From positions 128,001 through 192,000 of the forward strand of contig JACOWZ010000003.1 in NCBI GenBank assembly GCA_016176525.1: a stretch of 64,000 nucleotides of DNA, in the 5' to 3' direction. This document shows positions 2 to 11,922 of the stretch, piece after piece. The translations under genes and the position numbers were made by a program. Position 1 is the first letter of the stretch. Every line of letters begins with the position of its first letter. Under the pieces are notes generated by a model. It searched no databases, had not been told where the DNA came from, and saw only the letters and a program-made list of their open reading frames with translations. Origin of the DNA: Candidatus Colwellbacteria bacterium. Lineage in GTDB: Bacteria; Patescibacteriota; Minisyncoccia; UBA6257; Colwellbacteraceae.

Positions 2-463
2 GTAACATTTTCTCCAAAAACAAAAGGCGGAACAACTGCTTTTGATAAAAGAATGATTGCTCGGGCTGCAAAAATAGCCGAATCCAGCTCCGACTGGTGG
101 AGGCAAGTCGGGGCACTTATCGTAAAAAATGGAAAGGTGATATTAGAATCTTTTAACAAACATGTGCCGTCTCAAGATATGCCGTATATAGACGGAGACC
201 CGCGGGATTTCATAGAAGCGGGCAAATCAACCGACATTACAACTGTACTGCACGCCGAGCAGGGCCTTGTTTCGGAGGCGGCAAACCGCGGAATAAGCCT
301 TAAAGGCGCGTCGCTCTATATAACAACATTCCCGTGCGCACTTTGCGCAAAAGCTATAGCTTACGCTGGCGTAAAAAAGTGCTACTTCCGCGAGGGCTGG
401 GCAAACCTAGACGGCGAGAGAATTTTAAAATTAAAGGGCGTAGAAATTATACAAGTAAAATAA
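2..463 (+). CDS. comEB: dCMP deaminase (cytidine/deoxycytidylate deaminase family); 5' end probably outside the window
   Basis: Zinc-binding motifs HAEQ and PCALCA. The frame is open back to position 2. M53 aligns with an internal Met of homologs. Confidence 0.7.
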   Translation, partial: VTFSPKTKGGTTAFDKRMIARAAKIAESSSDWWRQVGALIVKNGKVILESFNKHVPSQDMPYIDGDPRDFIEAGKSTDITTVLHAEQGLVSEAANRGISLKGASLYITTFPCALCAKAIAYAGVKKCYFREGWANLDGERILKLKGVEIIQVK

Positions 464-465
464 AA

Positions 466-494
466 GGCCTCTCGTTTGAGAGGCTTGCCATTTT
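466..494. terminator. Bidirectional intrinsic terminator between convergent genes
   Basis: A-run, 7-bp stem GGCCTCTC/GAGAGGC with GTTT loop, then TTTT. Confidence 0.5.
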
Positions 495-495
495 A

Positions 496-1002
496 CTACC
501 CAATCGGGAAGTAGACAGCAGCTGGGTAGAACTTTCGTCTGCTACCGTCTACATCAACAAGCAGTGTTGGCTTTTCGTCTTCCCCCGGAATGCGCGGCAC
601 GATTAAATGCACGTGAGGGTGCATAATTGTGGCGCCGGAGAGTCTTGGATCACCAAAGCGCATACACAAGCCCCCGCCGGTTATATTTAATTTCTCGCGT
701 AGCGCACCGGCAACGCCGAACATATCCAACACATCCCTTTCCTGTATGTCACCCGTCGCATGCCAACGCGGCATAATAAGGAAATGATACTGCGGCGAAT
801 TACCACTCCAGTCCTTTGTCGGGTACTGGTTTTGTACTGCGATCCAACCACCGTGTTCTGCAATAACACGTTCTGGAGCTTGAAACTCCGGCTTACAGAA
901 TGGGCACTCGCCTGTTTTTTGCGCTTCCTGAAGCTTCTCGGCGTACTCTCCGCCGTACTGAACGTTGGCAACTACTGGTTCGTCTCCCGTGTTTATTCCT
1001 CC
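496..1002 (-). CDS. HIT-family (histidine triad) protein, GalT-like with CPFC zinc motif; paralog 1 lacks a canonical start codon
   Basis: C-terminal 92 aa (MPRWH...HPHVHLIVP...VYFPIG) are in the ORF track. Hand translation of 775-1002 in the same frame continues the homology to the neighbouring paralog (CPFCKPEF...GGWIAVQNQYP...YHFLIM). There is no ATG/GTG/TTG in that stretch. A GGAGGA Shine-Dalgarno sits right after the upstream stop. Confidence 0.5.
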   Translation of the reverse strand, partial: GGINTGDEPVVANVQYGGEYAEKLQEAQKTGECPFCKPEFQAPERVIAEHGGWIAVQNQYPTKDWSGNSPQYHFLIMPRWHATGDIQERDVLDMFGVAGALREKLNITGGGLCMRFGDPRLSGATIMHPHVHLIVPRIPGEDEKPTLLVDVDGSRRKFYPAAVYFPIG

Positions 1003-1170
1003 TTATATAGAGCTGCTAACAAAATACTAATTATTATGTTAGAATTCAAGTAGATCTTGCATGCAGGTTGTACAACAAATAGCAATGGTGGAGTGCCCGA
1101 CCTGTAGAGACCTTGTCTGTAAGCCGCCGGAGGGGCAAACCGAATGCAATCGTTGTCTCTCACGGAACAA

Positions 1171-1207
1171 GGGGCGATGAATCGTAAGATTCCGCCCCAT
1201 TTTTTTA
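1171..1207. terminator. Hairpin GGGGCG..CGCCCC followed by ATTTTTTTATCC
   Basis: GC stem plus T-run seen in sequence. The same TTTTTTTATCC tail recurs at 16202 and 17149. Confidence 0.45.
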
Positions 1208-1642
1208 TCCTATCGGGAAATATACTGCTTTAGCTCTGCCGCGCGAAACTTTTGGCACAATTAAGTGAGCGTGGAGATGGCGAACGGTAGCGCCTGTGTG
1301 TGTTGAGTCCCCAAAGCGCATAATAAACCCCCCGCCTTTAATCGAAAATTCTTTTATAACCCACTTAACTAAATAAGAAATATACCGCCAATCATTCGCA
1401 GTCACCTCTTTAAATTGCTCCTTATGTTTCGGCGCAACCATAATAAAGTGATATTTGCTATTTTTATATGGTTGCATGCTCTCGGTAATAATCCAGCCGC
1501 CGCGCACGCGCAATATCGGCTTTTTATGCCACTTAAAATGTTTTGGACAAAAAGGGCAAACACGAGATTCATTAATCTCTGTTAGTACTTCTTTGTAATA
1601 TTCGCTTTTTGCGTAACGCTTGTCTATAAACTTGTTGGCCAT
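1205..1642 (-). CDS. HIT-family protein paralog 2 (CPFCP zinc motif, HLHAHLIVP triad)
   Basis: HxHxHxx motif; ends VYFPIG like paralog 1. Confidence 0.8.
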   Translation of the reverse strand: MANKFIDKRYAKSEYYKEVLTEINESRVCPFCPKHFKWHKKPILRVRGGWIITESMQPYKNSKYHFIMVAPKHKEQFKEVTANDWRYISYLVKWVIKEFSIKGGGFIMRFGDSTHTGATVRHLHAHLIVPKVSRGRAKAVYFPIG

Positions 1643-1653
1643 CAGCTATTAAA

Positions 1654-2481
1654 TTATAGCGCAACCGGAATTTTTATAGGCGGGTGCGGGTCGTAGTCTA
1701 AAAGCTCAAAGTCTTCAAATTTAAAGTCAAAAATATTTTTAACGTCGGGGTTAATCTTTACGCGCGGCAGTTTGCGGGGCTCGCGTGTAAGCAACTGCTT
1801 AACTGGTTCAATTTGGTCCAAATATATATGCGTATCGGACAATGTATGAATAAATTCTTTTGGTTTTAGACCCGTAGCCTGCGCTACCATCATCAAAAGA
1901 AGCGTATACTCTGCAATATTAAATGGCACGCCTATAGGCACATCTGCTGATCTCTGGAAAAGATGCAGGCTCAAATTGCCGTTTGAGTGGAAAAACTGGA
2001 AAAAGCAGTGGCATGGTGCGACAAAAACTTTCTCTACATCCACAGGGTTCCAAGAGCTTACAATCCATCTGCGAGAATCCGGATTTTTCTTGAGCCCATC
2101 TATAACCAAAGAGATTTGGTCAATAGGTTTATCTCCCCCGCCATCAAATGCCCTCCACTGTTTGCCGTAAATCGGCCCAAGTTCGCCGGGCGGTAGCCCC
2201 ATTTGTTTGCAAATCTCCGGGGTTGCCCATATGTCCCAAAGTTTTACACCGTGTTTGTTTAAATCTGCCACCTTAGTGGAACCGGATAAAAACCAAAGGA
2301 GCTCATAAACCATCGCTTTCCAAGAACCCTTCATAGAGCGCGTTGTAATTAATGGAAAACCATCATCTAAATTAAAGCGCATCTGGTAGCCACATACACC
2401 GATGTTACCCACACCCTGTGGGTCGGTTTTCTTAGTGCCGTTTTTTAGAACATGCTCAACTAAATCTAAGTATTGCCGCAT
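1654..2481 (-). CDS. thyA: Thymidylate synthase ThyA
   Basis: Full-length similarity including the PCHxxFQF active-site region and DxxxGxPFN. Confidence 0.9.
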
Positions 2482-2483
2482 AA

Positions 2484-2858
2484 TTAATTAATACCCAACA
2501 ACGTTTTAACTTTTGAGACAACCTCTTCAAGCTTCCAATTTGTTTTTACCAAAAAGGTAAATACACCATGCCTAATGCCTTCGTCCACACTTGTCGCAGA
2601 AGAAAGGTTAGTAAGAATCACCACTTTAGCGCTTTTACCCCATTCATCTTTTCTTAGTTCCCTTAGCATTGTTATGCCGTCCATTTTTGGCATTATAATA
2701 TCTAAAAGTATTAGATCTGGCTTATTTGACAGCGCATTTTTTAAACCCTCTTCGCCGTTTACGGCCTTTAGCACATTAAAGCCCTCTCGTCCAAACTTCT
2801 CGTATAAAACGTTTAAAAGAGGTAGCTCGTCTTCTACTATTAAAATAGTTTTGTTCAT
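2484..2858 (-). CDS. Single-domain response regulator (CheY-like receiver)
   Basis: IVEDE...[10 protein letters not shown]...K pattern. Confidence 0.8.
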
Positions 2859-2870
2859 AAGTTAATTATA

Positions 2871-4283
2871 TCAAACCCCCCCCTCCGGCGAAAGTTTTCT
2901 GGTGCCAGATTTTTTCTCCATCCAGTTGACCGGCGCAGATATATAAAATGTAGTGCCTTTGTTTTCGACAGACTCAAACCAAATTCTGCCGGTGGTTTGG
3001 TCAAGAACTGATTTTATTATATACAAACCCAAGCCAGTTCCGCCAGAGTCAATAACACGTGCATTGTCCGCTCTAAAAAGTTTTTGAAATATTTTATTTT
3101 TTTGAGCCTCTGGAATGCCTATGCCCGTGTCCGATACCTTTATTAAAAGTTCTTTTTTGCCGCTCAAAGAAATATCAATATTAACTTTACCGCCTTCTGG
3201 AGTGTATTTAACGGCGTTAGATAATAGGTTTTGTAAGATTATGAGCACTAAATCTTTGTCTGCGGTAATCTTAGGAATCTTTGCACCATAATTTTCTATA
3301 AGCTCAATATTTTTCTTCTTCGCATCTATTCTTATTCCACTGCAAACACCTTTTGCAAAATCTTTAATATCTAATTGTTCCGGCTCCACAGTAAAAGAAC
3401 CTACTTCCAACCGCGACACATTTAGAAGTGCGTTTACAAGCTCAATCATGCGCCTGTTGCCTTCATTTACTTCTTCTAGATATTTCTTCTGGCTGATTGT
3501 TATTTTGCCAACGTCGCCGGAGAGAAGCATTTCTGTATACCAGCTTATTGCCGTAAGCGGGGTCCTTAATTGATGCGATGCTATAGCTATAAAATCTGCC
3601 TTTACTTTCTCAAGCTGAAGTTCTTCTGTAATATCTCTAAATACCAAGACAGCTCCTATTATTTTGCCGCTTAGAAATATCGGCGATACGGCCATATATA
3701 CGGGAAACTTATCTCCATTTCTCTTTTTTAAATATAAAGTGGTTTTTACCGAAACTGGGCCAGAAGAAACCATTTTTTTTAAACTAAAGGCCTTGCTGAT
3801 TAGCCTCTCTTTTTTGGGTAATTCTTTACCGTCTGCATTATATATATTTGTTATAGATAGCCAATTTTTGCCAATCATCTCATTATGCATAAAACCCAAC
3901 AATGTTTCAGCTGTCTCATTTACTTCAATCACATTATTATTTTCATCTATTGCAACAACGCCTTCTCCTATACTCGCCAAGATTGATTTTATTCTGGTGT
4001 TAATTGTTTCCAGCTCAACTTTCGTGATGTCTAGATCTTCTAAAATATTTAAAGCTGCAACTTTCGTATCTTCTAAATCTTTGTTTGCGCTAATCAGAGC
4101 TTGATTTCTTTCGTAGACTGCCTGTCTCGCCTCTTTAATTTCTGCCATAGACTTTTCAAAAGTTCTTGCTTCAGCGCCCAACCTCTCTAGCTTTTCTTTT
4201 AGCTTATTTCTACTTCTCCAAAAAAAGGATAAAATCCCCGCAAAAGCGGCTAAATTAAGCAATACAAATAGCAAAATTTGCAT
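2871..4283 (-). CDS. Sensor histidine kinase: N-terminal TM helix, coiled coil, PAS, HisKA, HATPase_c
   Basis: H-box ASHQLRTPL; G1/G2 boxes DTGIGIP and GTGLGL. Confidence 0.85.
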   Translation of the reverse strand: MQILLFVLLNLAAFAGILSFFWRSRNKLKEKLERLGAEARTFEKSMAEIKEARQAVYERNQALISANKDLEDTKVAALNILEDLDITKVELETINTRIKSILASIGEGVVAIDENNNVIEVNETAETLLGFMHNEMIGKNWLSITNIYNADGKELPKKERLISKAFSLKKMVSSGPVSVKTTLYLKKRNGDKFPVYMAVSPIFLSGKIIGAVLVFRDITEELQLEKVKADFIAIASHQLRTPLTAISWYTEMLLSGDVGKITISQKKYLEEVNEGNRRMIELVNALLNVSRLEVGSFTVEPEQLDIKDFAKGVCSGIRIDAKKKNIELIENYGAKIPKITADKDLVLIILQNLLSNAVKYTPEGGKVNIDISLSGKKELLIKVSDTGIGIPEAQKNKIFQKLFRADNARVIDSGGTGLGLYIIKSVLDQTTGRIWFESVENKGTTFYISAPVNWMEKKSGTRKLSPEGGV

Positions 4284-4289
4284 ATTCCT

Positions 4290-4661
4290 CTATTTTGCTT
4301 TTAAAAGCTGTGTTTTTACCTTTTCTATAACTTCTTTCAGCGGGTGGTTAGACTTTACAAAATAGTCCGCTGCACCAAGAGCCATTGATTTTTTAATATC
4401 TTCGTCGGTATCTAAGTTTGAAAGTATTATAACCGGCACCGATTTTAACTCTTCATCGTCTTTTATTTCTTTTAACACTTCGTACCCTCCTTTTTTGGGG
4501 AGTAAAAGATCTAAGAGCACGATATCCGGCTTAAATTCTTTGGCAGCTTTAAACGCAGAGCCTCCTTCGTAGACAACTTTTGTCTGATAACCTTCGTGCT
4601 TAAACTTATCGTCTAAGGCATCGGCTAAAGCCGCCTCATCTTCAACTATAAATATCTTCAT
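4290..4661 (-). CDS. Single-domain response regulator
   Basis: Receiver-domain motifs. C-terminal DYFVKSNHPLKEV is shared with the receiver of 4683-6746. Confidence 0.8.
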   Translation of the reverse strand: MKIFIVEDEAALADALDDKFKHEGYQTKVVYEGGSAFKAAKEFKPDIVLLDLLLPKKGGYEVLKEIKDDEELKSVPVIILSNLDTDEDIKKSMALGAADYFVKSNHPLKEVIEKVKTQLLKAK

Positions 4662-4682: not shown

Positions 4683-6746
4683 CTAAACGTCTGTCTGCCG
4701 CCGTATTTTTTTGATAATATCTTTAGTAATTTGGTCTCTAGCTTTAGTTCGCTCTTCTGTGATTTTTTGCGCTGCCTTTTTACGCTCTGCTTTAAATATC
4801 TTTTCTTTCTCGGCTCTAAGTTTCGCTTGATCGCGCACTTCATCTTCAGCAAGTATTGCCCGCGTTTTTGTGCGTTCTACACGAAGAGCCGCAGACGCCT
4901 TTGCGCGTTCTTTTGCAACCGCAGATGCAACACGGATTTTCGCCGCATGCACTGCCTCATGCGCCCTCTCGCGTACACTCCTTAAAAGTTTTTCTGTTTT
5001 TCGTGCGCGTGCGAGTGCAGCCTTTGCTCTTTCTTTCTCTGCTTTAATTTCGCCTTCGGCCTTGCTCTTTACAGCTTTTAGGCGCGCTTCTTCTAACTTC
5101 TTGTGAGCAGCTATACGCTTTGCTTTTTGATTCTTTAGGCGGGTTAATTCCAGTTTAACTTTTGCGAGCTCTTTTAAGATATCTCTTTCTTTCTTTTTCT
5201 CTTCCATTAAAGCGAATTTGGTTGCTTTATTTACTCCGCTTAGTTTGATTTTTTTCTTTAGCGCAGCAATTTTTGTCTTGGCTCTCTCTTTTTGGCTTGC
5301 AATCAACTTTGACTCTTTCTCTAGCGTTTTAATCGCCTCCCTCGCGCGCTCGCGCGCATCTCTAATCGCGGCTTTTGCTTTATGCCTTGCCTCTGCAATA
5401 CTTTTTTGCTTTTCTTTGGTTTTTTCCGCGAGAAGTTTTTTAACCCTTTCATGCTCTTTTGCAAGCGCAAGTTCCGCCTCTTCTTTCTCTTTCTCTGCCT
5501 GCTCGGCAGCTTTTTTAGCTTCAATAAGCGAAGAGTCGCGCAGGTCGCGCTCAACATGCGTAGATTCGGCAAGTTTTTCTTCTGCAGAAAGCGCTGCCGC
5601 TTCCGCTTTTCTCTTCTCTTCAAATATTGCCTCTTCTGCATCTTTCTTTAGTTTTGCAAGCGTCTCTTCTGCGCGCCTTCTTTCGTCTGCGAGCGCGGTT
5701 TCTGCGCGTTCGCGTTCAATTGCAAGCTTTTCTTCAGCTACCTTTTTCTCAACAAGCGCCGCCTCTGCCATTTGCTTTGCACGCTCTGCCTCCTCTGCTT
5801 TCTTTTTAGCCTCCACTAGGGCCTTGCGAGCTTTTTCTATCTCTGCAGCCGCGGCTTTGGATTTTTTCTTCTCGCGTAAAAGCGCTTCTTGAAGTTTAAC
5901 CTTTTCCCCAAGCACTTCTTCGGTCGAAGTTGCCTTTACCGCTTTCTCCTCTGCGCGCTTTTTCTCAATGGCAATAGAAGCAGTAGTTCTTTTTCTCTCT
6001 TCAACAAGCGCCGCTTCAGCCCGTCTGCGCTCTTCTTTAAGGGCTTCTTCTGCGCGCTTATGCTCTTTTTCAAGCGCTTCTTCTTTGCGCTTAGCTTCTT
6101 CTTCTATTTTTTTGTGTTCTACTTCTCTCTCTGCTTCTGCTCTCTCGCGCTCTTTTGCTGAAGCCTCGGCCGCCCTTGCCCTCTCGGCTTCATGTGCTGC
6201 TTCTCTCTTTCTTCTCTCTTCTGCAAGCGCCTTTGCTGCATGCTTTCGCTCTGCATCAAGTGCTTCGCGAGCTTGGGCCTTTTCTTTTTCGTGCGCAGCT
6301 TCTTCCTCTTTATGGCGTTTTACCTCTAGCGCAGTTTTCGCATCTTCAATATCGGCAGTAGTTGGCAGCTGCACCCCGGCGCGCTCCATTATTTCACTAG
6401 CTTTCTCTACAACTTCTTTCAACGGATGGCTAGCTTTAACAAAATAATCCACAGCGCCCAACCGCAAGGCGCGTTTAATATCTTCATCGTTGCCGAGGTT
6501 TGAGAGCATTATTACATCGGCTTTCTTAAGCTCGTTGTCTCTTTTTAGTTCTTGTAAAACTTCAAAACCGTCTTTTATCGGCAACAGAATATCCAGCAAT
6601 ATAACATCTGGCAAAAAACGCCTTGCAATATCTACAGCCTCGCCGCCATTTTGCGCAATTTCAGCCTCAAAACCACTTGTTATAAATTTATCGCGTAAAG
6701 CTTCGGCGAGCGCAACCTCATCTTCTACAATAAGAACTTTCGCCAT
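4683..6746 (-). CDS. Response-regulator receiver domain fused to a ~550-aa highly charged E/K/R/A-rich helical (coiled-coil or single alpha-helix) region
   Basis: N-terminal 125 aa is a CheY-like receiver (VEDE...LLDILLP). The rest is low-complexity AEEKR repeats. Long + strand S/A/F-rich ORFs are mirror-image artifacts. Confidence 0.75.
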   Translation of the reverse strand: MAKVLIVEDEVALAEALRDKFITSGFEAEIAQNGGEAVDIARRFLPDVILLDILLPIKDGFEVLQELKRDNELKKADVIMLSNLGNDEDIKRALRLGAVDYFVKASHPLKEVVEKASEIMERAGVQLPTTADIEDAKTALEVKRHKEEEAAHEKEKAQAREALDAERKHAAKALAEERRKREAAHEAERARAAEASAKERERAEAEREVEHKKIEEEAKRKEEALEKEHKRAEEALKEERRRAEAALVEERKRTTASIAIEKKRAEEKAVKATSTEEVLGEKVKLQEALLREKKKSKAAAAEIEKARKALVEAKKKAEEAERAKQMAEAALVEKKVAEEKLAIERERAETALADERRRAEETLAKLKKDAEEAIFEEKRKAEAAALSAEEKLAESTHVERDLRDSSLIEAKKAAEQAEKEKEEAELALAKEHERVKKLLAEKTKEKQKSIAEARHKAKAAIRDARERAREAIKTLEKESKLIASQKERAKTKIAALKKKIKLSGVNKATKFALMEEKKKERDILKELAKVKLELTRLKNQKAKRIAAHKKLEEARLKAVKSKAEGEIKAEKERAKAALARARKTEKLLRSVRERAHEAVHAAKIRVASAVAKERAKASAALRVERTKTRAILAEDEVRDQAKLRAEKEKIFKAERKKAAQKITEERTKARDQITKDIIKKIRRQTDV

Positions 6747-6767: not shown

Positions 6768-8504
6768 TTACTTTTCAATTTCACCAATTTGTTCGCCTAT
6801 ATATTTGGCAGAATTTGCCGTGTTTTCTTTAAGGCGCAAAAGCATGGTTTTAATTTCGCGTGCTTCGCGCTCGTCAATCTTTTGGTCGGCATATTTTACC
6901 ATAATAGCGTCAATTTCTTTTTCAACATTCTTAAAGGCATTTACCACATCGCGGCGGGTAATAAACAAATCTCTTGATCTTTTTTCAGAGAGCTTTTTTT
7001 CAAACCAAAAGCCGCCTGCAAATGCCCCAGCAAGGAAAATTATAGCAAGAACAAAAAACCAAGTTTTTGAAATGTCTATGCCAAAGAGAGATAAGAGAGG
7101 CTTGTCTTTAACAGTTATCTTACTTGTTTCTGCAGGCAAGCTCTGCGCACCGCGGGAATCAACTGTGGTTGCAAGTATCACATAATTGCCGCGCCTAATT
7201 GAGGCCTCGCTAAATTCGCCGCTCCAATTTCCGAGCGGGTCAACAGCTACATCTTTTTGCGCCGCTACATCTCCGCGTTCCGAGCGCAGGACAAGGCGCA
7301 CTTTCTCTTCGGCAAGCGCAGTGCCAGCAATGCTAATATTCTGCTCATCTAAAATTACTCTCTCACTAAAAAACGTAATAACAGGAGACTCAATCGGCAA
7401 AATTTCTATATCCAAACTTGCTTCTGTTCTATTGCCTGCGTTATCAACCGCGGCAACAACTATCGTGTGCGCCCCGGGCGGAAGAGGTTTAATTTTATAA
7501 GTTGTTTCGTTGGTGTATTCCACTTCGCCGCCTATCGCACGGATTGCATAGTGTTCTAATCCCGACAAATCGTCGCCAGATTGATAAGTGAGTGTTGGCG
7601 ATGGGTTGTCTGTTACACCATCGACATCTGAACTAATATTGAATTCTACAGGTGGTGCCGTATCTATTGCTATTCTATAGTGTGTTGTGGGGCCCCAGCC
7701 AATATTATTGCGAAAGCGCACATGGAGATACCAAATGCCGTCATCAAGCGGCACAAATTCGCGCGCTTCAAAAAGGCCTTCGGAGGTTACAGGGCTTGAT
7801 GTAGGTATTTTGTTTATCAGCGTATCTACATTTGTTACATCATCTGGTAAGCTCCAAATTGCGGAAAACTTTGATTTTATATTAAACCAGCCCTCGGGGT
7901 CGGGATAAAGCGGCACCTGAACTTCCGGTTTAACAGGCAGATTGCCTGTTGGCACAGCGGGGCGCTCAATTTGCACAGGCGGAGCAACCGGAGAGGGTGT
8001 TACGCCCGGCACAACTTGTGAACCGGCTAAAATATTAACTGTTACACCCTGAAATTCGCGGAGCACATTGGTGCCACTGCCATCCGAGGCAGTTACGGCA
8101 CCATCTAGAAAGGTAATATTGCCTTCTCCGCCGCCCTTAACCCTAAATGTAATATTTAAAACCTGAAGTGACTGGCCGGATTTGCCAGAAGTTGCCCCGC
8201 CAACGAAAGTGACTCTGCCTTCAGTGTTATCAAATGCAGGCTCCTCTAACCAAAAATTAAAAATAGAATCGGTTTTACTCAGACTTGTTACCTCTAAAAT
8301 ACTCGTAGGAAAACTTATTGCAGCTTCGGCAGCGTTCACGCCAATCCCTTCTGAATTTATCTGGACATCAACTGTTATTGTATCCCCAATAGCTGCTGTT
8401 TCTTTGTCAGATGAAAGCTTTAAAATAGCCGCGCTTGCAGTATTTACTCCAAAAAACACTGTAAACGTTGCCGCTACCAAAACTAGTCTTAAAAATTTAT
8501 TCAT
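6768..8504 (-). CDS. Cell-surface protein: signal peptide, cohesin-like domain, Ig/FN-like beta domains, C-terminal TM anchor and charged cytoplasmic tail
   Basis: N-terminal MNKFLRLVLVAATFTVFFGVNTASA. Cohesin-like segment (ITVDVQIN...ISFPTSILEV...ITFRVKG). TM helix WFFVLAIIFLAGAFAGGFWF near the C-terminus. Confidence 0.6.
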   Translation of the reverse strand: MNKFLRLVLVAATFTVFFGVNTASAAILKLSSDKETAAIGDTITVDVQINSEGIGVNAAEAAISFPTSILEVTSLSKTDSIFNFWLEEPAFDNTEGRVTFVGGATSGKSGQSLQVLNITFRVKGGGEGNITFLDGAVTASDGSGTNVLREFQGVTVNILAGSQVVPGVTPSPVAPPVQIERPAVPTGNLPVKPEVQVPLYPDPEGWFNIKSKFSAIWSLPDDVTNVDTLINKIPTSSPVTSEGLFEAREFVPLDDGIWYLHVRFRNNIGWGPTTHYRIAIDTAPPVEFNISSDVDGVTDNPSPTLTYQSGDDLSGLEHYAIRAIGGEVEYTNETTYKIKPLPPGAHTIVVAAVDNAGNRTEASLDIEILPIESPVITFFSERVILDEQNISIAGTALAEEKVRLVLRSERGDVAAQKDVAVDPLGNWSGEFSEASIRRGNYVILATTVDSRGAQSLPAETSKITVKDKPLLSLFGIDISKTWFFVLAIIFLAGAFAGGFWFEKKLSEKRSRDLFITRRDVVNAFKNVEKEIDAIMVKYADQKIDEREAREIKTMLLRLKENTANSAKYIGEQIGEIEK

Positions 8505-8523
8505 AATTCTAATATTAAGTATA

Positions 8524-11370
8524 TCATCTTCTTAATCCTCGTATAAATATGGAAAAGTCCGAAATGTCGGTTTTGCCGTCTTGGTTGAGATCTAGCGTAC
8601 CGCGCAAAGAGGTGTCGGTTGATGCCCAACGGAACAAAAATATGCTCCAATCGCTGATATTGGCTTTGCCGTCGCCGTTTAAGTCGGTTGCCGGCACTAG
8701 TAAAGTGGAGATAATAAAACTCTTAACAATGGATTTAGGCGATCTGGGTCCGAGATTTCTGTCTTGTTGCCAAACGCTTATAGCGTGGGTGCCAACGCCC
8801 AGATCTGCAGTATTCACCAGCAGTTTATACGAGCCAGTATCCGGATATTCCGGATCTACACCACCCTCCACGCCGTCAATTTCGTATTTAATGCTTGAAG
8901 TTACAAATTTAGAGCCGCTAACCGCCAAGAAATCTCCCTTGCGCACAGTAGCCCGCGAGAGCAATATTGTTGGAGGTAAAAATATGTTTTCTACCGATGT
9001 TAAACCTCTTTGAATGTTTACTTCATAAAAAGTGGACTGTGCAGATGCCCCAAACTTGTCTGTGGCCCTAATTGCGTAATAAAAAACATCCGGCTGGGTG
9101 CTCGTAAATTCAATATAGAAAAAGCCCGAAGTTTGCACCGGAATATTGCTATCAACTTCGTAAGTCGGAGCAAAAGTACTTCCGCCGCGAGCAAGCAACG
9201 ATAGCGAGGCGTCTGGATATGCTTTGCCATGAAAATAAAGTCTGCCGATAGGAGTCGCCCCGCCTGGCGGAGGTGGTGGCGGAGGCGGAGGCGGTGGTGG
9301 CGGAGGTGGCGGTCCTGGAGGCGGAGGTGGAGGTGGCGGAGAGGTATTAGTAGTTCCGCTCGGCACATTTGAAATAGCGGAAACATTCGGCACTTCATCT
9401 GAAGTTTTAAGCGCAAAAAAGTATGTAGTGCTCTCGGAAAGCCCTGTAACAGTCATAGACTCGGAACTGCCAGCTACAGATGGCGTAGGCTCGCCGCTTA
9501 CAGCAGTTGCGGAAGAAAAATTGCCGTCAGTTATGGTAGAGGTTGAATACCTTATATCATAACTTGTGGCAGTCCCCGTACTTCCATCGTCCCCCGGCGC
9601 AGTCCAGTCGAGATCAAGTGTAGATGACGACGGGTTTGAAGCCGCTAGATCGCTTACTGCCGCAGGCGCGGTTGTGTCGGCAGATGCGGAAGTGGTGCCA
9701 CTTGGAATATTGGAAATAGCAGAAGTATTTGGCACTTCGTCAGATGTTTTGAGCGCAAAGAAGTATGTGGTACTCGCAGAGAGCCCCGTCACTGTTTTTG
9801 ATTCTGACGAACCAGCGACAGAAGGAGTAGGTTCTCCAGAAACTTGTGTAGCAGAAGAAAAATTGCCGTCGGTTATAGTTGAAGTAGAATAACGCAAATC
9901 ATAAGTAGTGGCAGTTCCCGTGTTTCCGTCGTCCCCTGGAGCCGTCCATGTAACTACAATAGACGAAGACGTAACCGAGCCGGTGGCTAAATCACTTACT
10001 GCTGCCGGCGCGGTAGTGTCCCCCGCTGCAGCAGGTGTAAATGGGCTTCCAGTCGGTACAACGCCGGTAGCGGAATAGTTCACATCATCGTCGCGGGTGT
10101 AGATGCGGTAATGGTACGCGGTGCCGTTTGTAAGGCCTGTATCCGTGCACGATGTAGACGATGTCACGCAGGCAACAGTTGAGGAACCGATGGTATTGCC
10201 GACTACATATGTTGTCCCCTCGGTTGGAGTATCGGAGGTGGCGGCGCCGGCTCTGCGCAAGATAATCGTGCTTGTATAGTCGGAATCGGCCGGGTTAGTC
10301 CAAGAAAGAGAAACCTGCGCGTCACCTGCCGTGCCAGTTGCGCCCGTGACATTTGCCGGCGACTCGTTGTCGATTGTGACTGTGGCGGAGTTGGTGTCGG
10401 TTCCTGCTTGTGTGTTGGTGCTTGTGAAAGCGGTAATTGTGCCGGTCACAGAATAAGTTGAGCCAGAAGGCGCGGGCATGTCGGCGTGTGATTTTGGAGT
10501 GATACGAATTTTGAATGAGGTGAGAGTTGTTGTGACAGGAATCCCGCAGCTTGTAAGCGAGACGGTGCTTGAGGCTGGGTCGACCTGCGAACAATACGTA
10601 GTAGAACCAGCGTTATTTGTTATCTCAACAAGCGAGAGACCGCCGGAAACGCCTGATGCTAAGGTTGCAGTCGCCGCTGTAACTGTGTCTGTGCCGGTTG
10701 AAGTTTGGAGAGTAAATGTATCAAGTTCGGTGGCAGAAGCGCCTGGGGCGATAGAGGAATTTGAGGGATTCGTGCCGTTGCCGATGGTCGTTGTCGCCGC
10801 GGGAGGAGTATATGTAACTGTTATCCATAAGTAATCAAAATGAATGGCGTCGGCTGCTCCGCCGTCGTTCGAGGTAAACTCAATATCAATATTTTGTATT
10901 TCGCTCAAGGTATCAACACCAGCCGAGAAAAGATTGTAGCTCTGCTCCGCGCTAAAACCAGTGATGTCGGTTGGAGTAATTGTTGTGTTTGTTAGCCCTC
11001 CGCCGTTGTCATAACGCACAGAATTTGTGCCGTTATACCCATCTTCAGCGCCGAACTGCAAACGGAGAGACACAGCAGTAATAGTAGAGCCAACTGGAAT
11101 CGACGAAACATCAAAAGTTATAAACTGCATAACAGCGCCTTTATCTACAGTGTAAACCCCATCGCTTGCAACAACCGCAGAAAGTGTGTCTGGGTCTACA
11201 GATGAATTATCGGTTGTAATTTCACTAAGCGCTTCGCCTGTGTTGTCGTTGGCATGCTTTGCATTAGGCACAGCGTTTAGCGTGTCTGCCAAAACCAGAG
11301 ATGTGCCATCAAAAAACCCAAACAAAACAACAATAGCAATAATAAATATAAAAAACTTAATTAACTTCAC
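8524..11370 (-). CDS. Large secreted protein: signal peptide, beta-rich domains, two tandem FN3-like repeats, poly-proline linker, C-terminal type-I dockerin
   Basis: Dockerin Ca-binding repeats DLNGDGKANISD and DLNQDGKTDISD. PPPPPPPPGPPPPP... tract. Two 114-aa near-identical repeats. Confidence 0.7.
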   Translation of the reverse strand: MKLIKFFIFIIAIVVLFGFFDGTSLVLADTLNAVPNAKHANDNTGEALSEITTDNSSVDPDTLSAVVASDGVYTVDKGAVMQFITFDVSSIPVGSTITAVSLRLQFGAEDGYNGTNSVRYDNGGGLTNTTITPTDITGFSAEQSYNLFSAGVDTLSEIQNIDIEFTSNDGGAADAIHFDYLWITVTYTPPAATTTIGNGTNPSNSSIAPGASATELDTFTLQTSTGTDTVTAATATLASGVSGGLSLVEITNNAGSTTYCSQVDPASSTVSLTSCGIPVTTTLTSFKIRITPKSHADMPAPSGSTYSVTGTITAFTSTNTQAGTDTNSATVTIDNESPANVTGATGTAGDAQVSLSWTNPADSDYTSTIILRRAGAATSDTPTEGTTYVVGNTIGSSTVACVTSSTSCTDTGLTNGTAYHYRIYTRDDDVNYSATGVVPTGSPFTPAAAGDTTAPAAVSDLATGSVTSSSIVVTWTAPGDDGNTGTATTYDLRYSTSTITDGNFSSATQVSGEPTPSVAGSSESKTVTGLSASTTYFFALKTSDEVPNTSAISNIPSGTTSASADTTAPAAVSDLAASNPSSSTLDLDWTAPGDDGSTGTATSYDIRYSTSTITDGNFSSATAVSGEPTPSVAGSSESMTVTGLSESTTYFFALKTSDEVPNVSAISNVPSGTTNTSPPPPPPPPGPPPPPPPPPPPPPPPPGGATPIGRLYFHGKAYPDASLSLLARGGSTFAPTYEVDSNIPVQTSGFFYIEFTSTQPDVFYYAIRATDKFGASAQSTFYEVNIQRGLTSVENIFLPPTILLSRATVRKGDFLAVSGSKFVTSSIKYEIDGVEGGVDPEYPDTGSYKLLVNTADLGVGTHAISVWQQDRNLGPRSPKSIVKSFIISTLLVPATDLNGDGKANISDWSIFLFRWASTDTSLRGTLDLNQDGKTDISDFSIFIRGLRR
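9266..9340. repeat. (GGN)n tract encoding the poly-Pro linker on the minus strand
   Basis: ggcggaggtggtggcggaggcggagg... seen in sequence. Confidence 0.8.
9345..10030. repeat. Tandem direct repeat, ~342 bp x 2 (FN3-like modules of the dockerin protein)
   Basis: cacttcatctgaagtttt at 9391 and cacttcgtcagatgtttt at 9733. Long near-identical blocks by eye. Confidence 0.7.
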
Positions 11371-11400: not shown

Positions 11401-11922
11401 TTACTTTAAGCTCTTTATCTTTTTTTTCAGCTCAACCATCTTGAGCTCTCTGCCAACCATAAATTTATTCATTCTCTCAATCTCTTTTGTGTGACGCTCG
11501 GCTTCTTTCTGACTTTCCACCTCTTTTGTTATGTCTCTAAAAATCTCTATAGAGCCAATTGGCTTATTATCTAAAATAATCGGCGAGGCGGTTATAAAGA
11601 CCGGGAAAACACTGCCGTCTTTTCTAACATAGTTTGATGTGCCGCTTACAGACTCCCCCGTTTGCAAAGATTTAGTAACCAATCTATCTGTAGCCGGCAC
11701 CGGTCTGCCGTCATTATCTATATCTTTAACCACATCCGGAAACCACTTGCCTAAAAGGTCGCTTTCTTCGCATCCAAGGAAACTAAGGGCGGGTTTATTT
11801 ACTTTATTAATTTTCCCGCTCTCGTCTATTGCAATAAAGCCGTCGCCAATACTTTCTATTGTCGCCTCAAGACGCAAACGCTCTTCTGTAATTTTCGCGT
11901 TCTCATCTGTATTTTTAACCAT
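11401..11922 (-). CDS. PAS-domain sensor protein with C-terminal helix ending in MNKFMVGRELKMVELKKKI motif
   Basis: PAS signature (GDGFIAIDESGKI...N.A...LG). No output enzyme domain. Confidence 0.7.
   Translation of the reverse strand: MVKNTDENAKITEERLRLEATIESIGDGFIAIDESGKINKVNKPALSFLGCEESDLLGKWFPDVVKDIDNDGRPVPATDRLVTKSLQTGESVSGTSNYVRKDGSVFPVFITASPIILDNKPIGSIEIFRDITKEVESQKEAERHTKEIERMNKFMVGRELKMVELKKKIKSLK

Follow-up and report, generated by a model that had tools for sequence, protein, structure and literature searches.

A cohesin-bearing membrane anchor and a dockerin-ending cargo gene form a candidate plug-and-socket surface-display module linked to two-component genes in Parcubacteria-type bacteria

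How bacteria belonging to the candidate phyla radiation (CPR, or Patescibacteria) attach to hosts or surfaces is, to our knowledge, largely unknown outside a few cultivated Saccharibacteria. In this work we ask what is encoded by two adjacent genes of Candidatus Colwellbacteria that bear on this problem, in a stretch of 64,000 nucleotides (assembly GCA_016176525.1, contig JACOWZ010000003.1, positions 128,001 to 192,000 of the forward strand; hereafter the window). In a first reading of this DNA, hereafter the original prediction, one gene was taken to encode a cohesin-bearing membrane protein and the other a large fibronectin type III (FN3)/poly-proline protein ending in a dockerin, the two together tethering the large protein to the cell surface and serving, plausibly, in host attachment. 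Both open reading frames (ORFs) are indeed adjacent on the minus strand, which also carries the two-component and PAS genes described below: the anchor gene (6768..8504, 578 aa), defined by its ORF, Pfam matches, homologs and an AlphaFold2 (AF2) model, and the cargo gene (8524..11370, 948 aa), defined by its ORF, Pfam matches and junction sequence, whose product ends in a cassette of two immunoglobulin (Ig)-like domains and a dockerin. A scan of the whole 64-kb window with hidden Markov models (HMMs) and for domains returned a single cohesin and a single dockerin. Our analyses suggest that the two genes probably encode a tether in which a single plug fits a single socket in a calcium-dependent manner and by which a fast-changing fibrillar adhesin is held, the whole being coupled genetically to two-component genes.

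A cohesin is a compact beta-sandwich (jelly-roll) of about 140 residues, and the N-terminal module of the anchor (residues ~25-160; 8025..8432) is assigned to this fold by Pfam, AF2 and Foldseek. The Cohesin family (PF00963) matches residues 29-145 with 30.4 bits (gathering cut-off 24.1), and when residues 24-165 were modelled alone (predicted local distance difference test score, pLDDT, 94.7; predicted template-modelling score, pTM, 0.87), the best 50 Foldseek matches in the PDB were all cohesins, with template-modelling (TM) scores of 0.65-0.77 and E values of 7e-9 to 2e-6. These matches comprise type I cohesins from cohesin-dockerin complexes as well as the non-cellulosomal Archaeoglobus cohesin 2xdh (TM score 0.76/0.78), and both score and fold uphold the cohesin assigned to this gene in the original prediction. 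Type II cohesins possess an extra alpha-helix and beta-flaps and extend over about 170 residues. No such helix was found in the model by DSSP, the module measures ~135 residues against the ~170 expected of type II, and the target-normalised TM score of the model is 0.55-0.61 for type II as opposed to 0.70-0.78 for type I and archaeal cohesins, all of which points to a compact, type I- or archaeal-like module and not to type II. When the whole 578-aa model was submitted to Foldseek, only generic multi-Ig chains were returned, with no cohesin signal; these include SiiE, PrgB and the repeats of large adhesion proteins, and the best whole-chain match, the archaeal surface-layer (S-layer) protein 7ptp, arises through generic Ig similarity.

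The remainder of the anchor is organized as expected of a membrane-held stalk. In the full-length model, built on a 77-sequence family alignment (pLDDT 89.5), a signal peptide (residues 1-24, MNKFLRLVLVAATFTVFFGVNTASA; 8433..8504) forms a helix at residues 2-18, and the beta sandwich at 26-160 is followed by a disordered, Pro-rich and presumably flexible linker of low pLDDT and no secondary structure (residues 161-195; 7920..8024). Three beta domains (~196-287, 288-370 and 371-472; 7089..7919), recognised by Pfam and strand pattern, make up the stalk, the second being a Big_13 domain (residues 292-368, 39.6 bits); the stalk is modelled with pLDDT >90 and is the most conserved part of the anchor family. 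A long helix (480-537) then begins as a transmembrane segment (residues ~480-503; 6996..7067), recognisable in the sequence and followed directly by K/R-rich residues, and continues into a predicted cytoplasmic helical hairpin (residues 504-578; 6771..6995) completed by a second helix at 545-577. The topology is consistent with an N-out, C-in orientation, and the signal peptide, membrane anchor and cytoplasmic tail that had been proposed for this protein, which the public record lists as a hypothetical protein (locus tag HYS87_00800), are thus borne out by sequence and model. The hairpin is present in ~75 of 80 loci and is the fastest-evolving region of the anchor (mean distance 0.73), with residues R518, D519, Y568 and I576 nearly invariant across the family.

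At the other end of the proposed pair, the dockerin occupies cargo residues ~891-948 (8527..8700). Dockerins consist of a duplicated segment of ~22 residues, each a 12-residue EF-hand-like calcium-binding loop (Asp/Asn at positions 1, 3, 5, 9 and 12) followed by a helix. In the window, two 12-residue calcium-binding loops, DLNGDGKANISD and DLNQDGKTDISD, start 31 residues apart, and Dockerin_1 (PF00404) matches residues 895-946 at 24.4 bits against a cut-off of 22.9, rising to 26.0 bits when the C-terminal part is scanned alone, so that cohesin and dockerin both score above their Pfam gathering cut-offs. Both loops are found in all 75 family members aligned, with the same 31-residue spacing of their starts in 64 of the 75; the columns D1 and D12 are invariant (100%), N3, D5 and G6 are conserved at 80-98%, and each loop is followed by a helix, the two helices being near-symmetric with the motif D-[WF]-S-I-F-[LI]. 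Dockerin_1 scored above its cut-off in all four distant relatives first tested and in eight of ten further relatives (26-31 bits among the distant relatives), two of the ten falling just under it at 21.1 and 22.1 bits. Furthermore, a profile of 75 cassette sequences matches solved dockerins with a best E value of 3e-7.

The dockerin does not stand by itself. It forms the end of a cassette comprising the last ~250 aa of the cargo, in which a Gly/Pro-rich linker is followed by two Big_6-type Ig-like domains and then the dockerin. In the window, the linker between cassette and passenger is rich in Pro and Gly (9271..9360, within a tandem repeat at 9265-9341), a position at which relatives carry a Gly-rich linker, and the two Ig-like domains (8701..9270), related to Big_6 and to Bap repeats, are assigned by identity, Big_6 and profile matches. 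Ig-like domains precede the dockerin in all relatives, some of them with Big_6 matches of their own, and the cassette profile matches the Bap repeats of 7dm0 at an E value of 1e-11. It also aligns to the X-module-dockerin (XDoc) chains 4wi0_B and 4u3s_B across the Ig-dockerin junction (E ~2e-4), and it is possible that the cassette Ig-like domains are the equivalent of an X-module. The original prediction of a textbook type I dockerin thus stands as regards the dockerin, which has its Pfam match and two calcium loops, and was too specific as regards type I, given the preceding Ig-like domains and the XDoc alignments.

To what extent is this pair conserved beyond the window? In a collection holding one genome per species, 164 stretches match the anchor, with homologs 40-70% identical over ~100% of their length, and an anchor HMM run against 1.84 billion cluster representatives recovered >100 full-length members (50%-identity clusters) among the top 150 matches, many of the homologs having a precomputed PF00963 match. 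Lineages that carry it include Colwell-, Wolfe-, Uhr-, Jorgensen-, Staskawicz-, Nomura-, Yonath-, Harrison-, Azam- and Magasanik-bacteria, as well as Buchanan-, Yanofsky- and Adlerbacteria, among others. The four distant loci examined first all displayed the order of a giant gene, the anchor and a small receiver (REC) gene on the same strand. We subsequently scored 80 species-level loci, plus those found earlier, with HMMs, restricting the count of pairings to the 84 loci with at least 900 nt of upstream sequence. In 81 of these 84, the anchor is preceded on its own strand, at a distance of 2-180 nt, by the stop of an ORF that carries the cassette at its end; each locus has exactly one cassette. 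Because this synteny is kept in 81/84 loci across many CPR lineages, it lends strong indirect support to the pairing of cohesin and dockerin. Taken together, anchor and cassette-bearing cargo make up a family-wide module of Parcubacteria-type CPR bacteria. Several module-bearing contigs (our loci L029, L030, L031, L057 and L079, along with many 'binchicken' loci) are labelled Methylococcaceae, Gammaproteobacteria or Saccharibacteria, one Gammaproteobacteria-labelled record being a complete chromosome of 886 kb, a size typical of CPR; because these contigs carry the same CPR-type module, their labels are probably record errors or the result of mis-binning.

Conservation within the cargo is markedly uneven. 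Among five distant loci the cassettes are 33-40% identical and the N-terminal passengers unrelated, and among close relatives the cassette is at least as conserved as the anchor, with the passengers losing alignable coverage through gain and loss of domains. Complete cargo proteins measure between 257 and 2737 aa, and for one distant locus 3360 aa is on record; the payloads include fn3, TIG (8 copies), Big_13 (10 copies), Big_3_5, YDG and InlB B-repeats, as well as much unannotated sequence. No catalytic domain and no carbohydrate-binding module was detected in the ~19 cargo proteins scanned. Searches for cassette homologs with a single sequence and with a 75-row profile returned 10 and 16 mostly short proteins, respectively, the yield being limited by the word index, and were of no use as a payload census. 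In the window, the cargo begins from a GTG start with a signal peptide (MKLIKFFIFIIAIVVLFGFFDGTSLVLA; 11287..11370), followed by an N-terminal passenger region of ~300 aa (10381..11286) and three FN3 domains (residues ~331-670; 9361..10380) which Pfam fn3 matches in three stretches at 74 bits, so that the FN3/poly-Pro character originally ascribed to this protein holds. The N-terminal region may represent a lineage-specific 'business end'. FN3 domains 2 and 3 (residues ~450-670; 9361-10050) are near-identical in amino-acid sequence, both starting with ADTTAPAAVSDLA and ending with TTYFFALKTSDEVPN, a likeness that suggests a recent internal duplication and is consistent with remodelling of the payload by gain of repeats. 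In general, the payload would appear to be a lineage-specific and rapidly remodelled array of adhesin-type beta domains.

A further question is whether the two-component genes beside the pair are part of the same system. In order of transcription on the minus strand, the locus reads PAS, cargo, anchor, REC-coiled-coil, REC, histidine kinase (HK), REC: a stand-alone PAS protein of 173 aa (11401..11922; Pfam PAS_9, 54 bits) stops 30 nt 5' of the cargo gene, 19 nt separate the cargo stop codon from the anchor start codon, and 22 nt past the anchor begins a REC-coiled-coil gene (4683..6746, 687 aa; identified by Pfam REC and by ortholog alignment), followed by ORFs for a REC protein (4290..4661), a PAS-HisKA-HATPase kinase (2871..4283) and the second REC protein of this downstream set (2484..2858). 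The pair had been described as lying directly downstream of the two-component cluster; read in the direction of transcription, it lies inside it. Intergenic gaps within the PAS-to-REC run are 6-30 nt, and they are the sole basis on which an operon structure is suggested; a scan for promoters and terminators did not find sites in excess of those in shuffled sequence.

To test recurrence without bias, we took 20 genes lying within the first 22 kb of the window and compared them with the 80 loci. The anchor recurred in 80/80, the REC ortholog in 72/80 and the HK core in 50/80, while the cargo was recovered in 66 by single-sequence search and in 78 by HMM; PAS domains were matched in 28/80, mostly within HKs, the stand-alone PAS gene being specific to the window's lineage, and none of the remaining genes tested recurred in any of the 80. 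The tether module is thus genetically coupled to a two-component system, and what had been noted as a mere neighbourhood is a conserved feature. The REC ortholog, whose copy in the window (4683..6746) scores 199 bits with a REC HMM and 71 bits with Pfam REC, always lies on the module's strand, in one of three arrangements (REC directly 3' of the anchor, HK-REC directly 5' of the cargo, or HK-REC 3' of the anchor), and those loci that lack it have, without exception, short flanks. Its phosphorylation residues are conserved in the ortholog alignment (E8-D9, D52 of LLD, S81 of LSN and the FVK lysine), as is the motif LSNLxxDEDIKxAxxLGAxDYFVK, which marks it as a specific ortholog. In relatives the protein is usually a single domain of 123-160 aa; the version in the window is fused to a K/E/A-rich predicted coiled coil of ~570 aa, and one further locus (L036) also has a long receiver protein, of 573 aa, at the REC position. 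The idea that the linked HK has no sensor of its own and senses by way of the anchor was rejected as a rule, the N-terminal regions of these kinases spanning 240-1146 aa with 0-8 transmembrane segments. Signal input is not conserved across the family, because the sensor parts of the kinases are unrelated.

Variants of the anchor offer additional insight into its two ends. In one 636-aa variant (P0212), present in two independent assemblies (L090 5431-7341 and L091 2739-4649), the signal peptide, cohesin, stalk and transmembrane helix are followed by a PAS domain replacing the cytoplasmic hairpin; this anchor follows a dockerin protein of 819 aa, whose stop codon overlaps the start codon of the anchor, and 3' of the anchor lies an arginase gene and no REC gene. 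The stand-alone PAS protein of the window was considered as the counterpart of this fused domain and set aside, the likeness being generic (26% identity, E 2e-4). Another variant (P0268) has PA14 and other N-terminal modules fused onto the stalk, transmembrane helix and tail and has no cohesin, two (P0188 and P0201) carry an SH3b insert of wall-binding type in the stalk, and one (P0218) ends in a short basic cytoplasmic tail only. These architectures fit a stalk that would present an adhesive module beyond the wall, and they indicate evolutionary plasticity of the cytoplasmic end, which at times appears to be a signalling domain.

From these features we propose the following mechanism. Both proteins would be exported by the Sec pathway, as their signal peptides suggest, with the anchor remaining in the membrane as a type I membrane protein held by its single C-terminal transmembrane helix. 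The stalk and Pro-rich linker would hold the cohesin at a distance from the membrane, probably reaching across the cell wall, where the cargo dockerin, possibly together with the adjacent Ig-like domain, would plug into it non-covalently and in a calcium-dependent manner; this step is proposed because of domain identity and the strict 1:1 adjacency of the genes. The tether so formed would display a lineage-specific array of beta domains, in the window a head of ~300 aa with three FN3 domains, and the two-component system would presumably either control the tether or respond to it. Since the passengers are adhesin-type beta-domain arrays without enzymes, host attachment by the 8524-11370 product, as put forward in the original prediction, remains plausible; attachment to a host or substrate, as opposed to a structural function in the envelope, is the likeliest role, and we give it about even odds.

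That the anchor cohesin and cargo dockerin bind one another is in our judgement very likely, and we consider it quite improbable that they are merely co-regulated neighbours, with the dockerin-like module binding calcium for stability or engaging some other target and the cohesin binding something else. What could be said for such an arrangement is that cohesin-like modules without a known dockerin partner exist, for example in TMEM132 (PMC6030884), and that a mirror-tree and partial-Mantel analysis gave no signal specific to cohesin and dockerin: the partial correlation r(C,D|I) was 0.29, not above that of control region pairs, and every pair of regions was 'significant', including anchor tail against REC, so that the analysis does not discriminate, its signal being read as shared phylogeny. 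Against it stand the strict 1:1 adjacency over deep CPR lineages, the joint conservation of cohesin and dockerin, above all of the D-[WF]-S-I-F-[LI] helices, while the remaining cargo turns over, and the variant with PA14 fused in place of the cohesin, which is what would be expected if the cohesin holds the cargo. A second alternative accepts the pairing and sees in the cargo a structural, S-layer-like or fibril subunit fixed by the anchor in a housekeeping role. We think this rather unlikely: the module is nearly universal and apparently single-copy in the lineages having it, some cargos amount to scarcely more than the cassette, and an S-layer protein is the top fold match to the anchor taken as a whole chain, albeit through generic Ig similarity, but payload length and domains vary enormously even among close relatives, which would be unusual for a lattice-forming protein, and the payload types (TIG, Big_13 arrays, YDG, InlB repeats, and PA14 in the fused variant) are those of fibrillar adhesins. 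Finally, cellulosomes are defined by their cohesin and dockerin modules, and a minimal cellulosome-like display of enzymes for polysaccharide degradation might be imagined; with a single cohesin, one cargo per anchor, no carbohydrate-binding module and neither glycoside hydrolase nor other catalytic domain among the ~19 cargo proteins, we hold it to be very improbable indeed.

The reading that we favor, a calcium-dependent tether for a fibrillar adhesin coupled to a two-component system, also has observations that weigh against it. In addition to the mirror-tree value given above, the ~300-aa N-terminal region of the window's cargo has zero Pfam matches and zero PDB sequence matches, some cargos are nearly the cassette alone (257-337 aa), such that a large adhesin is not obligatory, and host attachment would follow from domain types only. 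As regards signalling, the unrelated sensor regions of the associated HKs, as well as an anchor tail that is the least conserved part of the protein and absent in a few members, disfavor one fixed signalling mechanism. A direct physical link between the anchor tail and the receiver or kinase is something that we regard as doubtful, and we likewise give little credence to a stronger version of the proposal, in which the anchor is a transmembrane coupler of the displayed adhesin with two-component signalling, an integrin-like device in ultra-small cells. In such a coupler, load on the adhesin or binding of its ligand would be passed inward through the transmembrane helix and hairpin to the CheY-like receiver and PAS kinase, or, outward, the phosphorylated receiver would act on the tail and thereby change display. 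Compatible with it are the conservation of the REC ortholog as the sole non-surface gene kept with the pair (72/80 loci), the PAS domain fused in place of the tail in one lineage, and the gene order in a Saccharibacterium, where an HK and a gene for a REC-only protein come directly before an essential dockerin-domain Ig protein (PMC10633639).

That Saccharibacterium, the cultivated Southlakia epibionticum, provides a possible published parallel to the proposed tether. Its protein SEML1_0315 (927 aa), essential for epibiotic growth, has Ig and FN3 domains and is said to contain a dockerin domain, and over SEML1_0315 to SEML1_0318 it is preceded on the same strand by genes for a PAS-domain histidine kinase, for a response regulator of REC-only type and for tRNA-Glu (PMC10633639). 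This order matches that of many Parcubacteria loci, the likeness being one of gene order; the supplements of PMC10633639 hold no cohesin annotation and no annotated cohesin neighbour of SEML1_0315. Public annotation calls some members of the present family 'cohesin domain-containing' or 'dockerin type I domain-containing', and the searchable literature on cohesins and dockerins in CPR bacteria, Patescibacteria and episymbionts yielded no account in which anchor, cassette and receiver are described as a conserved cluster.

Beyond cellulosomes, pairs of cohesin and dockerin are known from archaea, Clostridium perfringens and anaerobic methanotrophic (ANME) archaea (Peer et al. 2009, as cited in PMC9012536 and PMC6030884). 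Those of Archaeoglobus fulgidus, ANME archaeal proteins and C. perfringens toxin complexes likewise use single modules to join proteins; the present pair differs in forming a fixed, putative two-gene operon across many CPR lineages, linked to a response regulator and kinase, and in bearing its cohesin on a transmembrane-anchored stalk with a cytoplasmic hairpin and its dockerin in a cassette under a hypervariable payload. In its domain content, with one cohesin per anchor, one dockerin gene per locus and no carbohydrate-binding module or enzyme among the cargos examined, the predicted system is not a cellulosome. It does resemble the anchoring scaffoldins (C. thermocellum SdbA/CipA XDoc, A. 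cellulolyticus ScaA/ScaB of 4wi0/4u3s and R. flavefaciens ScaE), in which a surface cohesin receives an Ig-preceded dockerin, a likeness seen in the alignment of the cassette profile across the junction and in the distance matrix of the cohesin, which correlates best with the Ig region of the cassette (r = 0.73). Unlike these scaffoldins, the anchor is held by a transmembrane helix and not by S-layer homology (SLH) domains, nor by sortase, its cohesin is without the type II helix and flaps, and the cargo is adhesin-like and not an enzyme-loaded scaffoldin. With fibrillar adhesins (Bap, SiiE, and the Ig domains of PrgB) the system shares long arrays of Ig-like repeats, the cassette Ig-like domains themselves resembling Bap repeats; attachment would, however, be non-covalent and by way of a separate membrane protein, instead of by sortase and LPXTG, an autotransporter or the retention module of type I secretion. 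The same order of cohesin-like module, tandem bacterial-type Ig domains, transmembrane helix and short tail is found in TMEM132, a single-pass, coherin-type adhesion molecule of eukaryotes whose cytoplasmic tail has been proposed to connect to intracellular partners (PMC6030884). The resemblance is an architectural analogy only, and TMEM132 has no known dockerin partner. Non-cellulosomal cohesin-dockerin pairs were already known; the present work adds a candidate display module of plug-and-socket type that is found across CPR lineages, varies greatly in its payload and is tied, in a conserved manner, to two-component genes.

Beyond the module, the adjoining part of the window (53-2481) contains a dCMP-deaminase-like gene, two HIT-like genes and a thymidylate synthase gene that ends 2 nt before the last REC gene; these nucleotide-metabolism genes were found near the module in none of the 80 loci. 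Several long ORFs on the opposite strand at 4.7-6.5 kb are spurious products of the low-complexity, K/E/A-rich coding there. In a patescibacterial locus (L008 13643-17698), the module adjoins a sortase and two large surface proteins with CLIPPER_2, PG_binding and ice-binding-like domains, and several surface-display systems may be clustered there.

Together these results define a compact and recognisable module, composed of an anchor, an Ig-Ig-dockerin cassette and a receiver, across many Parcubacteria-type lineages. From the conserved plug and socket one would predict two binding partners open to direct expression and measurement, and it is in the hypervariable payload that partner specificity is most likely set. 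With the cassette as a search key, displayed proteins could also be located and inventoried in any CPR genome. In mechanical terms, cohesin-dockerin binding ranks among the strongest protein interactions known (PMC6030884), a property that would suit a tether under load. The conserved tie to two-component genes further suggests that these organisms, few as their signalling genes are, regulate or sense surface display.

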